From Escherichia coli (GTDB lineage: Bacteria; Pseudomonadota; Gammaproteobacteria; Enterobacterales; Enterobacteriaceae), in the NCBI RefSeq assembly GCF_003334785.1, contig NZ_QOWV01000002.1: a stretch of 64,000 bases of DNA, one strand, 5' to 3'. This document shows positions 355 through 29,675 of the stretch, piece by piece; position 1 is the first letter of the stretch; each line of letters begins with the position of its first letter. The notes under the pieces were generated by a model, which was not told the DNA's origin, made no database searches, and saw only the letters and a program-made list of their open reading frames with translations. The position numbers and the translations under genes were made by a program.

Positions 355-469
355 CAGAAAACCCTCCGAGTGGTGTGTTTTTTTGCGACTACTAATCGCT
401 TTTTTCGTGGTGGCTGAAATTTAGCCACCAATAGTAGGCACTTGTGATGAATATATTCACGATGAATTG

Positions 470-769
470 TTAACCAGTCTTTTGACCGGAGTGGGGCGAC
501 GTTGTTTCGTTTTGCCCAAAGTGTGCGAGAGCGGGCGCAATTTGCCCGGACTCAGGAGCGATCTGATTGGTCATGAACCATAAAGTGTATTTGGTGAATT
601 GTGGGGTCTGCAGGATGTTCATCATGACATCTGTTGGAGGTGTTGAACGACCACTTTCATAGTAACTCAGCGTGCCATACGGAACCCCTGTTAAATCAGC
701 AAGTTGTTGTCTGCTCAAATACTCTGATTTTCGCATTAAGACTATCTTCTCGCTTATCGTGTTTGACAT
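470..769 (-). CDS. C: P2 immunity repressor C (99 aa)
   Basis: 99-aa ORF MSNTISEKIVLMRKSEYLSRQQLADLTGVPYGTLSYYESG... with HTH; size, sequence and position (between int and cox) match P2 C. Confidence 0.85.
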   Translation of the reverse strand: MSNTISEKIVLMRKSEYLSRQQLADLTGVPYGTLSYYESGRSTPPTDVMMNILQTPQFTKYTLWFMTNQIAPESGQIAPALAHFGQNETTSPHSGQKTG

Positions 770-883
770 GGTGTTTAGATCTCAATAGTATTTAGTTTAG
801 ATGTAGATTGTTTAGTGCTTGGATGTGGGCACTAAAAGGCATTATAAGACATTAAACGCAATTCATGAGGGCTAGAGGACGAC
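770..883. promoter_or_regulatory. Divergent Pc/Pe early control region with C operator direct repeats (TTTAGAT at 774-780 and 796-802, 22 bp apart)
   Basis: Intergenic region between divergent C and cox; two direct TTTAGATNT repeats spaced 22 bp centre to centre, as described for the P2 operator. Confidence 0.5.
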
Positions 884-1030
884 ATGAGCAAGCAAGTAAC
901 ACTCATGACTGATGCGATTCCTTATCAGGAGTTCGCAAAACTAATAGGAAAATCGACATGAAGTGGTTTACTGAATTTGGCCACCTGAACAGAGGTGATA
1001 TGCTCACCTCAGAACAACACAGGTGCCATA

Positions 1031-2178
<1,148 letters not shown>

Positions 2179-2398
2179 CTCGGTGGCCAGTTTTTGTTGA
2201 CCACTTCAACAGGAGCGGTTCGTCGGATGATCGATAAAGGAAAGCTGCCTGTAATTGATATGACCGATCCACAATCAGCTTCAGGTCGTGCAGGTGAATA
2301 TTGGGTATACCTTCCGGCATGGAATAACGGACTAAAACTGGCTTATGAAAGCCGCCCTAAAGAGATTCGTGACGGCTGGTTGATGTGGTTAGGTCTCG

Positions 2399-2593
2399 GT
2401 GAACCACGTTAAGGAGAACCGTATGAATGAGCCTCGTTGTATTGCTCAGTTACTGCGTAACGAAAGCCCCAGGGCGATTGACTTCACCATCACCCACGGT
2501 AAGGGGCGTAAGGGAATCATTATCCGCACCAAAAAACAGAGTCCGTTAAAAAAGGCTCTGACCTTTCTGAAAAGCCGGAGGGTATGGAAATGA
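2399..2593 (+). CDS. Small early-operon protein (P2 orf78 position)
   Basis: ORF directly after cox and before B; synteny with P2 early operon. Start uncertain. Confidence 0.45.
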   Translation: MNHVKENRMNEPRCIAQLLRNESPRAIDFTITHGKGRKGIIIRTKKQSPLKKALTFLKSRRVWK

Positions 2594-6451: not shown

Positions 6452-6777
6452 TGGCAAAAATTCACGAGGTAAAGCTGCACGCAAAATATTTCGACCTTGT
6501 ACTGGAAGGAAAGAAACGCGCAGAGTTTCGGAAAAAAGATCGTAATTATGAGCGCGGGGGCACGTTGATTTTGCATGAATGGGTGCAGGGTGTGTTTACG
6601 GGGCGAAAGGTTGAAGCCCGGATAACAGATGTTACTGACCTGTCAGACTGGCTGGAAGATTATGTCTTGCTGCACAGAATACTAGGTGAGATACTGCCGC
6701 TGACTGTCAAGCTGGCAGTATCCTCCACATTTTTTATAAATCTAAGGCGAAGAACGGTGGCAATATATTTGCTTTAA
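6448..6777 (+). CDS. Hypothetical protein (P2 orf91 position)
   Basis: MAKIHEVKLHAKYFDLVLEGKKRAEFRKKDRNYERGG...; start overlaps A stop; follows A as in P2. Confidence 0.5.
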   Translation: MMAKIHEVKLHAKYFDLVLEGKKRAEFRKKDRNYERGGTLILHEWVQGVFTGRKVEARITDVTDLSDWLEDYVLLHRILGEILPLTVKLAVSSTFFINLRRRTVAIYLL

Positions 6778-6815
6778 ATTGTAAATAAGCAAATTATTCT
6801 AAGCCACAAATGATA

Positions 6816-7577
6816 TCAATTGAGTATCGATTTTCGTTCGAATATAACCATAACGCCAAGCGTCAAATGTAAGTCATCTATATGTGATTCGTATTCATAT
6901 TGGTCAGCATCAGGAGGTAGTAAATGCTCTGCTGCTGTAAAAACATCAATTGTAACAGATATATCGTCTGGAATTTCTTCATTTAATTCGGATATGTATT
7001 TTTTATATTTGTTTTTTAATTTCCTTATCATGTCTTCCTTATGGTGGATTGTAGTGCAGTAATTTTTTTTAGTTGAATCATTGTATGAATGGAATGAACA
7101 GTTTAATGCTAGGCCAAGACTTGAATTTCCTGTAGGGCCTGTGTGTTTAAAGTATTCAAGATTTCTTCTTATGTCAGAAAATAAAAGACTTTTACAGGGG
7201 GCATTTCCTTTAACTTCTATTGCACATATTGGAATGTCGAAAAATGGTCTGCTGTCCAATATGGCAATATCAATTCTGCCTGATCTTGTTGTGTTTGTGT
7301 TTTTTCTGACAGTTTTTTTTGAGAATGTTTTTTGGGGGTCAGACCGTTTCGATAAAGGAACTGTTGCATTAATGAATTTATTTGTATGGTACTCAAATAT
7401 AACTTTGTAATCACCATGGCGAAAAGATTTTATTTCTAACAACGATAGACCTATAGATACGGTAGCTACATATTCAGTGTTTATTTTTGCACCAGACCTG
7501 AAATCCATTAAATAAGTTGCGTCGGCTGACTTTTTCATTCCATCTTTTACAGCTTTCACAATATCCATGTTATTCAT
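6816..7577 (-). CDS. tin: Tin-like protein (253 aa), the P2 T-even phage inhibition function
   Basis: 253-aa AT-rich ORF immediately downstream of old in the A-to-cos hotspot, the position of tin in P2. Identity rests on synteny and recalled size, not on a recognised motif. Confidence 0.55.
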   Translation of the reverse strand: MNNMDIVKAVKDGMKKSADATYLMDFRSGAKINTEYVATVSIGLSLLEIKSFRHGDYKVIFEYHTNKFINATVPLSKRSDPQKTFSKKTVRKNTNTTRSGRIDIAILDSRPFFDIPICAIEVKGNAPCKSLLFSDIRRNLEYFKHTGPTGNSSLGLALNCSFHSYNDSTKKNYCTTIHHKEDMIRKLKNKYKKYISELNEEIPDDISVTIDVFTAAEHLLPPDADQYEYESHIDDLHLTLGVMVIFERKSILN

Positions 7578-7751
7578 ATCAACACCTTTTATATTCCAGA
7601 ATTATAAATCTTAATGATTGATTTGTTTGTGTGTTTAGGTTACTAGATTGACGTACTTATAGCACATTCTGATTTTGAAATCACCATCCTTGGGTAAAGC
7701 ACAGCCTATCACTATTGGTTTAGTACTGTGCTGTAATAGTATCAGATTAAG

Positions 7752-9512
7752 TTAAATCCATTTTATGAAATCTTCCATTTCATCATATTTTTTTATTACT
7801 GCTCTAACATCTTTGCTTTCATCACATAAACAATCTAAAAGACTATCCCATTCAGTTTGTTTTTTACCAAATCCATAAACAGCCTCTATATCACCGGATT
7901 TCCATATATAGATTCCGTTATCTTTCAATTTTTGATGTATTTCATGTATATGCTTTTGTGTTTTTTCATGGTTACATATTTTGATGAAGTCTTTGCTTGA
8001 AATGCTTTTGAATGACTCAAAAGTAGTAACTTTTGTATTTAAACTAAGCTCTCCTGAGTTGATTGATTCAATCAAAGCAGTCAATAGATTATCACATTCA
8101 GTACTAAGTAAGTCTTTATGCTCTGTTAATAGAATATTTGATAAGAAATCACAATCAGCTAGAATCCTTGTTTTTATGCCGATGGCATTGATGATTTGTG
8201 ACATCTTAAATAAACTACCCTTACCGTCAACGGCAACAATGCAGATTTTACTCGGGTTGAGTTCATGTCCGTTAATTTTTTTATAAAGTGCATATAGAAC
8301 GTTTGTCTCTGTTTTCCCTTCAACAAGCAAAACTTCTTCAGAAAATAAAAGGTATGATGAATTAGAAAGCGTGAATGCTGAGTGCAATTGCGGTGATGAA
8401 GATTTATATAATTCTTCGATTTTTTCAGATATAGTCTTCCTTGCTATGGTTCCATTAGAATCCTTACAAACCTGAATCGCATTTGCTGCATGCTTTGCAG
8501 AAAGCATACTGGCTGAGTGAGTTGATATTATAACCTGATACCCTGATTCACTTAATGTGACAAGTGATTCTCTGACAGAATTAATGGCTGAAGGGTGTAA
8601 ATATAACTCAGGTTCATCAATGAAAATCAAAGTGTTTGATTTTTTTGATTCGCTGTTTTCTTTTTTTATTTCGGCCAGGTATTGAATTAATGCCATTTGA
8701 ATGGAACGTTGTGTTCCGTGACCAAATCGGCTGATATCTCTCATTACCGGTTCATCTTCCCGAGACTCAAAAACTTTCAGAGTGCCGGATTTAAATATCT
8801 CATCTAATGTCGGTGTGGGAAAGTGTAACTTTACACTTACGTCGGGAAAAAATTGGTTTACTTTTTTATTTACGCCTGAGTCTATTTTATTAAGGCTTTC
8901 TAATCTGTTCTCACCGTTGTGAGAAAGATATTTACCTATTTCTGATATGTTTTTTGAAAATTTTTCTTCGTGTTCTTGTTTTATTTCAGAAACAATTGCG
9001 GAAAGTATCTTTCCTATTGTGGTCGTGTTTTTGCATTTTGTTGAGTCTTCGACAGCGTCAGACATTGCAGGGATATGAATTGGTTCCGGAAATATATTGG
9101 AGATTGCACCATCTATGCCGCCAGGGTTTTTCTTCCACGTGGTACCGTCATATACATCCAGACTTTTTTTGGCTTTTCCTGTTTCCTTATTAAATTCCTG
9201 TCTTCTTGCAAAGGTAAGAGTCCCGTCAATTATAAACGGAGCTATTTTTTGTTGATTCTCTTCTGTTAACAAAGACAGAGTATCATCTGTTATACCTTGA
9301 ATAACGCCTTCAACGGATACGGGGTGTGTAGGATCGTACACATCTGATTCTGAAATCAAAGAGCCATCTAACAGCCACTTAATTGCTAAGATAATATTTG
9401 ATTTTCCTGCGTTATTATAACCAACTAAAGCAGTGAAGGGGCGCAAAATAGCCGATGTTGACTTACAAGAACGAAAGTTGCTAATTGAAACTGAAGCAAG
9501 ACGTACAGTCAT
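7752..9512 (-). CDS. old: Old exclusion protein: OLD-family ATPase/nuclease (586 aa)
   Basis: Walker A LVGYNNAGKSN near the N-terminus, Walker B-like LIFIDEPELYLHP mid-protein, C-terminal nuclease-type region; 586 aa and position next to cos match P2 Old. Confidence 0.8.
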   Translation of the reverse strand: MTVRLASVSISNFRSCKSTSAILRPFTALVGYNNAGKSNIILAIKWLLDGSLISESDVYDPTHPVSVEGVIQGITDDTLSLLTEENQQKIAPFIIDGTLTFARRQEFNKETGKAKKSLDVYDGTTWKKNPGGIDGAISNIFPEPIHIPAMSDAVEDSTKCKNTTTIGKILSAIVSEIKQEHEEKFSKNISEIGKYLSHNGENRLESLNKIDSGVNKKVNQFFPDVSVKLHFPTPTLDEIFKSGTLKVFESREDEPVMRDISRFGHGTQRSIQMALIQYLAEIKKENSESKKSNTLIFIDEPELYLHPSAINSVRESLVTLSESGYQVIISTHSASMLSAKHAANAIQVCKDSNGTIARKTISEKIEELYKSSSPQLHSAFTLSNSSYLLFSEEVLLVEGKTETNVLYALYKKINGHELNPSKICIVAVDGKGSLFKMSQIINAIGIKTRILADCDFLSNILLTEHKDLLSTECDNLLTALIESINSGELSLNTKVTTFESFKSISSKDFIKICNHEKTQKHIHEIHQKLKDNGIYIWKSGDIEAVYGFGKKQTEWDSLLDCLCDESKDVRAVIKKYDEMEDFIKWI

Positions 9513-9716
9513 TATTTTTCCTTAAATGTGCTATTTGTATGCAATGAGTTCATGCGAAACGCTTTTTTACATTTTATAGTCGTTGCATTCAAGGGTGCAT
9601 GAGATTGCATTAAGGGAAACTGTGATATGGCTTGGCTTTTGACTGGAAATACTGATGGCTCATTAGTTTTATTAAGGTGCATTAAAACCGCCCCGTGAAG
9701 CGGGCGGGCGAGGCGG

Positions 9717-9735
9717 GGAAAGCACTGCGCGCTGG
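9717..9735. other. cos cohesive-end sequence GGCGAGGCGGGGAAAGCAC
   Basis: Exact 19-nt match to the P2 cohesive end as I recall it, located between old and Q in a GC-rich region. Confidence 0.5.
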
Positions 9736-15608: not shown

Positions 15609-15647
15609 CAACCGAATGCGCCCCGCGCCAGGGCGGCACGCCGGTCA

Positions 15648-16076
15648 GTGAGGGTGACCGGACTTATTGAATCGCTGTCACCGTCAGGGCGTCGGCGACT
15701 GAGCGCCGAACTGGCGAAACGTCTGCGGCAGAGTCAGCAGCGCCGGGTGATGGCACAGAAAGCCCCGGACGGCACACCCTACGCACCACGCCAGCAGCAG
15801 AGCGCCAGAAAAAAGACCGATCGCGTTAAGCGAAAAATGTTTGCGAAACTTATCACCAGTCGTTTTTTGCATATCCGCGCCAGCCCGGAACAGGCATCAA
15901 TGGAGTTTTTCGGCGGGAAGTCACCGAAAATCGCCAGCGTGCATCAGTTCGGTCTGTCGGAAGAAACCCGGAAAGACGGTAAGAAAATTGATTATCCGGC
16001 GCGTCCTCTGCTCGGCTTTACCGGTGAGGATGTGCAGATGATTGAAGAGATTATCCTGGCTCACCTTGAGCGTTAG
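15648..16076 (+). CDS. L: Head completion protein gpL (GTG start assumed)
   Basis: ORF in the same frame directly after M; last recognisable P2 head gene before the replaced segment. Confidence 0.7.
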   Translation: MRVTGLIESLSPSGRRRLSAELAKRLRQSQQRRVMAQKAPDGTPYAPRQQQSARKKTDRVKRKMFAKLITSRFLHIRASPEQASMEFFGGKSPKIASVHQFGLSEETRKDGKKIDYPARPLLGFTGEDVQMIEEIILAHLER

Positions 16077-18908: not shown

Positions 18909-19512
18909 TTCGCGACTGCTGCCGACTGGCTCATCACCGCTTGAAGTCGCCGCCGCAAAAGCCTGTGCGGAAATTGAAAAAACGCCGGTCAGTATTCGTG
19001 AGCTGTGGAACCCGGACACCTGCCCGGCAAATCTGCTGCCGTGGCTGGCGTGGTCATTTTCGGTCGACAGGTGGGATGATAAGTGGCCGGAAGCGACAAA
19101 ACGCGCTGTTATCCGCGATGCGTATTTCATTCACTGCCATAAGGGCACTATTGGTGCGATTCGCCGTGTGGTGGAGCCGCTCGGCTATCTGATTGAGGTG
19201 AGGGAGTGGTGGCAGCTCAACGAGGAGCCGGGGACGTTCCGCATCGTTGTTGGCGTGCTTGAGCAGGGTATTACCGAGGAAATGTATCAGGAGCTGGAGC
19301 GCCTCGTTGCTGATGCAAAACCGGCGAGCCGCCATCTGACGGGACTGGCTATCAGTTTAAGTACAACCGGCAACATTTTTGCCGGTGCGGGATGCTATCA
19401 CGGTGACGCCCTGACGGTTTATCCCTACACCCCGGAGGCCATTATTGTCGGAGGGGATTATTTCCCGGCCTCGGCCATTCATTTAATTGATAACCTGAGA
19501 GTAAACGCATGA
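18901..19512 (+). CDS. I: Baseplate protein gpI
   Basis: MSDSRLLPTGSSPLEVAAAKACAEIEKTPVSIRELWNPDTCPANLLPWLAW...; order J-I-H. Confidence 0.8.
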   Translation: MSDSRLLPTGSSPLEVAAAKACAEIEKTPVSIRELWNPDTCPANLLPWLAWSFSVDRWDDKWPEATKRAVIRDAYFIHCHKGTIGAIRRVVEPLGYLIEVREWWQLNEEPGTFRIVVGVLEQGITEEMYQELERLVADAKPASRHLTGLAISLSTTGNIFAGAGCYHGDALTVYPYTPEAIIVGGDYFPASAIHLIDNLRVNA

Positions 19513-29588: not shown

Positions 29589-29615
29589 AAAAAATAAGCC
29601 CGTGTAAGGGAGATT
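29589..29615. other. Prophage attachment core (attR), AAAAAATAAGCCCGTGTAAGGGAGATT
   Basis: 27-bp sequence matching the P2 att core as I recall it; coincides with the terminator/3' end of cyaR. Confidence 0.6.
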
Positions 29616-29675
29616 ACACAGGCTAAGGAGGTGGTTCCTGGTACAGCTAGCATTTTATGGGTTATGTTTTTCAGC
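29589..29675 (-). ncRNA. cyaR: CyaR (RyeE) Hfq-dependent sRNA
   Basis: Reverse complement reads GCTGAAAAACATAACCCATAAAATGCTAGCTGTACCAGGAACCACCTCCTTAGCCTGTGTAATCTCCCTTACACGGGCTTATTTTTT, the CyaR sequence as recalled, with terminator hairpin and U-tract. Confidence 0.85.

Follow-up and report, generated by a model that had tools for sequence, protein, structure and literature searches.

A base-identical copy of the phage P2 C operator in a damaged Escherichia coli prophage

The paired direct repeats between the C and cox genes of an Escherichia coli P2-type prophage are almost certainly O1 and O2, the operator half-sites of the P2 C repressor, in the switch region of a prophage of P2 immunity. 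The prophage lies in a 64,000-nucleotide stretch of contig NZ_QOWV01000002.1 (RefSeq assembly GCF_003334785.1); we refer to this whole stretch as the window and give all coordinates as positions in it. Nothing in the data contradicts the O1/O2 assignment. The element itself is already known in full detail, and the window holds another copy of it, identical to the type sequence and set in a damaged context.

Direct reading of the sequence located TTTAGAT on the plus strand at 774–780 and 796–802, confirming an earlier note on this DNA that had described two such direct repeats, 22 bp apart, between C and cox. The repeats are direct as described, but a 7-bp unit proved too short: each copy gains one matching base leftward, so that the true unit is the 8-bp sequence GTTTAGAT, present at 773–780 and 795–802 with 22 bp from start to start and hence from centre to centre, a distance of two helical turns. 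The pair sits inside the 114-bp gap that extends from the C start codon (767–769, minus strand) to the cox start codon (884), and the third and last copy of GTTTAGAT in the 64-kb window is found at 21509 on the minus strand. Of 1121 window tiles of 114 bp, 93 held an exact direct repeat of 8 bp or longer with its copies 10–40 bp apart; sequences from a Markov-1 simulation of this AT-rich stretch did so in 7.4% of cases. Restricting the spacing to 21–22 bp lowered these values to 6 tiles of the 1121 and 0.5% of the simulated sequences. Judged by counting, the repeat is only weakly unusual and not compelling, and the case for an operator therefore rests on its match to an experimentally defined site.

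Comparison with the P2 operator, which the earlier note had proposed as a check, revealed identity. In a megablast search of phage genomes, window positions 360–960 matched bacteriophage P2 (AF063097 / NC_001895) at 100% over 599 bases, as did several Peduovirus records at 100%, and ungapped comparison with AF063097 showed no mismatches across 1–958 or across 2209–2834. The curated features of AF063097 map to the window at a constant offset of 25121. The octamers coincide with its annotated half-sites, in keeping with the P2 C operator architecture that had been suggested for them: O1 (773–780, plus strand) corresponds to 25894–25901 (misc_feature 'O1 repressor binding site') and O2 (795–802, plus strand) to 25916–25923 ('O2 repressor binding site'). 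The segment between them, CTCAATAGTATTTA at 781–794, is a 14-bp linker with 11 AT and 3 GC positions, as described in PMC2995052.

The promoters and the repressor gene follow the same mapping. The −35 hexamer of the early promoter Pe, TTGACA (763–768, plus strand; AF063097 25884–25889, 'minus_35_signal early promoter Pe'), overlaps the opening codons of C on the opposite strand, and the Pe −10 hexamer, TAGTAT (786–791, plus strand; 25907–25912), lies between O1 and O2. A consensus scan of 400–2500 returned TTGACA-17-TAGTAT at 763–791 as the sole sigma-70-like site, with 10/12 hexamer matches. On the minus strand, the −10 hexamer of Pc, TATAAT, is at 841–846 (25962–25967, 'minus_10_signal Pc promoter'), and the Pc −35 hexamer, as annotated in P2, is at 861–866 (25982–25987). 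The open reading frame at 470–769 (minus strand) encodes the 99-residue immunity repressor C; its product is 100% identical to P2 gpC and agrees at 99/99 residues with the 'C protein' of PDB 2XCJ/2L49, the crystallised P2 C. The immunity type, which the earlier note had expected the repeats to identify, is P2, as established by the 958 bp of identity and by the agreement of C with 2XCJ/2L49 over its full length. Half-site sequence, 22-bp spacing, flanking of the −10 hexamer and the adjacent C and Pc all place the element in the P2-immunity-class operator, and even a published EMSA primer, GCATTAAGACTATCTTCTCG, is found unchanged at window positions 733–752.

EMSA with purified C, another check that had been suggested, is already published for the identical sequence, along with SPR, footprinting and reporter work (PMC1904268, PMC1904263, PMC2995052). 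P2 C binds two 8-bp direct repeats, 22 bp apart from centre to centre, that flank the Pe −10 hexamer (PMC1904268), and the 22-bp half-site distance is also given in PMC2995052. Repression in vivo was lost or reduced by mutating the two half-sites together, and EMSA in vitro could not tell apart single or double half-site point mutants (PMC1904268), so the exact contacts made by C remain a model (PMC2995052). In that model, C is a symmetric dimer in which one recognition helix per dimer reads the octamer and the other makes less specific contacts outside it, with bending of the DNA (PMC2995052). DNase footprinting of C showed four short protected patches: one each at O1, the spacer and O2, and a fourth that takes in about 12 nt downstream of O2 (PMC1904263). 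Because this last patch reaches roughly +16 of Pe (PMC1904263), the Pe start would fall at about 799, inside O2. The Pe and Pc transcripts share an overlap of about 35 nt (PMC1904263). C binding and Pe repression have thus been shown in the literature for the identical sequence, to which the present comparison adds identity of sequence and of layout in this prophage.

A partial third copy of the half-site, TGTTTAGTG (809–817, plus strand), has 7/9 bases in common with TGTTTAGAT at O1, with TGTTTAG occurring at both 772 and 809; its role is uncertain. It begins 7 bp past O2 and overlaps the extended C footprint of PMC1904263. Position 811, within this copy, is changed from T to C in one E. coli prophage, and TGTTTAGTG is therefore not invariant. 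We also considered a larger array of half-sites, with TTTAG at 791 and 811 and TAGAT at 804, of which only TGTTTAGTG meets the published extended footprint.

Cox represses Pc via cox-boxes (PMC3936717). Scanning with the consensus TTAAA(G/C)NC(A/C) from that work, allowing one mismatch, we found two cox-box-like sequences over Pc, both on the plus strand: TAAAAGGCA at 833–841, with one mismatch, and TTAAACGCA at 852–860, with none. The pattern is unspecific: the window has 196 matches where about 155 would be expected, and as evidence beyond the Pc region the scan was dropped as too loose.

The cox gene is broken downstream, as had been noted, by a 1250-bp insertion sequence that cuts it after codon 25. 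The 5′ fragment (codons 1–25; 884–958, plus strand) matches residues 1–25 of P2 Cox at 100% identity by tblastn, and its frame ends at TGA (959–961), the first three bases of the insertion. The 3′ fragment (codons 25–91 and the stop; 2209–2412, plus strand) is separated from the cox start codon. Between the two lies an IS3-family element of ISEc52 type (959–2208, plus strand), with orfA and orfB co-directional with Pe, terminal inverted ends TGAAGTGG...CCACTTCA and a 3-bp target duplication, ACA, at 956–958 and 2209–2211. Membership in the IS3 family is evident from the TG...CA ends, the 3-bp duplication and a DDE-domain OrfA/OrfB transposase, and the orfB product scored 302.8 bits against the IS3 family transposase model NF033516 (cut-off 160). 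Copies 99.8–100% identical to the element occur in E. coli genomes, where they are annotated as ISEc52 family ('IS3-like element ISEc52 family transposase'); full-length E. coli copies annotated as IS911 family are 94.0–94.1% identical, which places the element outside IS911 in the strict sense. It shares with IS911 the length of 1250 bp, the TGAAGTGG...CCACTTCA inverted ends, the 3-bp duplication and the orfA/orfB arrangement with an A-AAA-AAG slippery site. Going by the annotations of E. coli copies, the element is a relative of IS911 for which ISEc52 is the better name.

The earlier note had Pe transcription running into IS911. The geometry it implied held up, as the element is co-oriented with Pe and no intrinsic terminator was predicted on the plus strand from Pe to 2500, so that a Pe transcript would reach the element about 160 nt from its start. 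The identification as IS911 gave way to ISEc52, and such transcription should be rare: Pe would normally be repressed, because C, Pc and the operator look intact and Cox, the sole known repressor of Pc, is destroyed. A predicted open reading frame at 2194–2412 has a TTG start in the right end of the element, in frame with the cox 3′ fragment, and would put five IS-encoded residues before Cox residues 25–91. Residues 1–24 of Cox, a protein with its winged helix-turn-helix domain in the N-terminal half, are missing from this frame. No record among 5,426 complete E. coli RefSeq genomes covered the cox::IS junction, a 34-mer spanning the junction had no exact match among species representatives (one genome per species), and the 64-kb window contains no further copy of the element.

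Alignment of the whole P2 genome showed that the prophage spans from inside int (window position 1) to attR near 29615 and, apart from two near-identical blocks, matches P2 at 95–98.5% identity. Some 3 kb of the P2 genome (5950–8942 in P2) is missing, comprising L, X, Y (holin), K (endolysin), lysA, lysB, lysC and R together with the first nine codons of S, with a junction at about 15652–15657 (region 15640–15660) that has a 6-bp overlap. Through the L-to-S loss, the prophage would be unable to lyse the cell or to complete capsids and tails. The genes old, tin, A, B and ogr and the remaining structural genes are present. Judged by its gene content, the prophage is defective in at least two independent ways, with its immunity module intact.

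The H/G/fun(Z) region of P2 is replaced at 19331–22804, and fun(Z) is absent. The replacement carries a 378-residue H-like tail-fibre frame whose N-terminal part shows 43% identity to P2 H, small open reading frames that face each other and a 199-residue serine recombinase (22225–22824); it looks like an invertible tail-fibre host-range cassette. The exclusion genes within 6819–9512 are intact, with protein identities to P2 of 99.2% for tin and 100% for old. Identity to P2 is mosaic along the prophage: the 1584 bp that surround the immunity region (1–958 and 2209–2834) contain 0 mismatches, the 3 kb with orf91, tin and old (6709–9725) at most 5, and the sequence between these blocks 8–23 per 500 bp. 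Such a pattern suggests that modules were exchanged by recombination, as opposed to diverging uniformly. The prophage end, at about 29590–29615, is the yegQ side of the locus, at which many E. coli genomes carry only an ogrK / gpD-fragment remnant of P2. Beyond it, the host flank at 29616–53300 (yegQ, yegP, baeRS, mdtDCBA onward) is collinear with E. coli NCTC9100 and 99.87% identical to it.

The switch region is common within the species, its whole C–Pe/Pc–cox 5′ segment being present in 404 of 5426 complete E. coli genomes with an identity of at least 98.8%. Six copies in E. coli prophages diverge slightly, by 1–6 substitutions each, at positions 562, 569, 608, 683, 770, 811, 828, 849, 874, 876 and 940, with no change in O1, O2 or the Pe hexamers. 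In this small sample, the pattern of substitutions is consistent with constraint. An isolated 56-bp copy of window positions 752–807, comprising Pe, O1 and O2 and without C or cox, was found in E. coli CM2 (L014, NZ_CP114891.1) at 2501–2556, about 150 bp from a gene for a 709-residue Dam-family methyltransferase. The CM2 record gives its country as 'not applicable', and this copy looks as if the P2 promoter-operator had been put to use by engineering.

We weighed two readings in which the octamers are not sites for C. One holds that they are a chance repeat in AT-rich promoter DNA, with no binding role, and leaves the promoter hexamers as the only elements that count. Repeats of 8 bp or more are indeed common enough in comparable sequence, as the 93 of 1121 tiles and the 7.4% of simulated sequences attest. 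However, the identical P2 operator loses repression in vivo when both half-sites are mutated (PMC1904268), C footprints over both half-sites (PMC1904263), which are annotated as O1 and O2 in AF063097, other immunity types retain paired direct repeats of unrelated sequence, and the octamers are unaltered in all six variant prophages; taken with these observations, coincidence is scarcely credible. It is also very improbable that the repeats mainly bind a protein other than C, be it Cox that spreads from Pc or a nucleoid protein of the host. A cox-box-like 9-mer, CTAAACACC (770–778, minus strand, one mismatch), overlaps O1, and Cox at high concentration is reported to extend toward Pe and to repress it (PMC3936717). 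Yet this match comes from the same loose pattern, whose good boxes lie over Pc at 833–860, and Cox is cut to 25 residues in this copy, so that no Cox would be available. Binding of C at O1 and O2 is directly documented in the literature, moreover, and the P2 footprint obtained with C alone protects the equivalent of 773–814.

A different concern is that the operator is intact in sequence and functionally dead, a relic in a defective prophage in which C is no longer expressed. The multiple damage to the prophage, with cox interrupted by the insertion and L, X, Y, K, lysA, lysB and R lost along with the start of S, speaks for such a relic, but the C frame, Pc, O1/O2 and Pe are base-identical to those of functional P2. 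With Cox gone, Pc is without its only known repressor, a change that by the switch logic of PMC3936717 and PMC1904263 would favour expression of C over its silencing. We consider a dead operator unlikely and retain the reading of the repeats as O1 and O2 of a C-controlled switch.

In this switch, C dimers on O1 and O2, together with contacts in the spacer and just past O2, would bend the DNA and exclude RNA polymerase from Pe. Repression of Pe would silence cox, B and A, and hence lytic growth, and would leave the cell immune to superinfecting phages of P2 immunity. C would be transcribed from the convergent Pc (841–866, minus strand), which Cox shuts off in intact P2; with cox truncated after codon 25, the Cox arm would be lost and the switch locked with C on and Pe off. 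Both expression of C in this strain and the locking of the switch in this state are our inference. The cox::IS insertion, the L-to-S deletion and the P2 operator together mark the prophage as a probable locked, non-excising remnant. From its immunity class, the host should be immune to phages of P2 immunity and sensitive to heteroimmune ones, for example of the Wphi and L-413C types.

A more speculative proposal, to which we give only a small chance of being right, is that the base-perfect C/Pc/O1–O2 module of this prophage, no longer able to excise, lyse or assemble, has been kept as a superinfection-immunity cassette that serves the host beside the intact old and tin, with Pe acting as a repressor-gated promoter into the ISEc52 transposase genes. 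If so, activity of the insertion sequence and residual expression of B and A would rise only on inactivation of C, for example by the P4 antirepressor. The value of this copy is practical only; being identical, it sheds no further light on the way in which a symmetric dimer of C recognises direct repeats that are not palindromic.

Comparison with other immunity types had likewise been proposed as a check. A tblastn search with C returned 140 phage records, of which 10 were at 99% identity or more and the rest below about 62%. Wphi, L-413C and P2 Hy dis resemble the window in having two direct, not inverted, half-sites between C and cox near Pe, and they encode a homologous C repressor of the 99-residue class (PMC1904268), but the sequence, length and spacing of their half-sites are unlike those of the window. 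The C–cox region of Wphi has TATTGGTGAC twice, 34 bp apart, in agreement with the literature, that of L-413C has CTATATAGG twice, also 34 bp apart, and in P2 Hy dis the sites are 8 bp long, lie 26 bp apart and flank the −35 hexamer (PMC1904268). The C proteins of Wphi and L-413C are just 43–46% identical to C of the window. The switch regions of pro483 and of Klebsiella phage 3LV2017 contained no exact direct repeat of 7 bp or more. Because the half-sites of the heteroimmune Wphi and L-413C differ, GTTTAGAT at 22-bp spacing, together with this C, is specific to the P2 immunity class. With P2 itself, the window shares the octamer, the 22-bp spacing, the placement around the Pe −10 hexamer, the 14-bp AT-rich linker, the convergent Pc, C at 99/99 residues and 958/958 flanking bases. 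The operator is no different from that of P2; what differs is its context, in which cox is interrupted by the insertion sequence 75 bp into the gene and the prophage carries further deletions and replacements.
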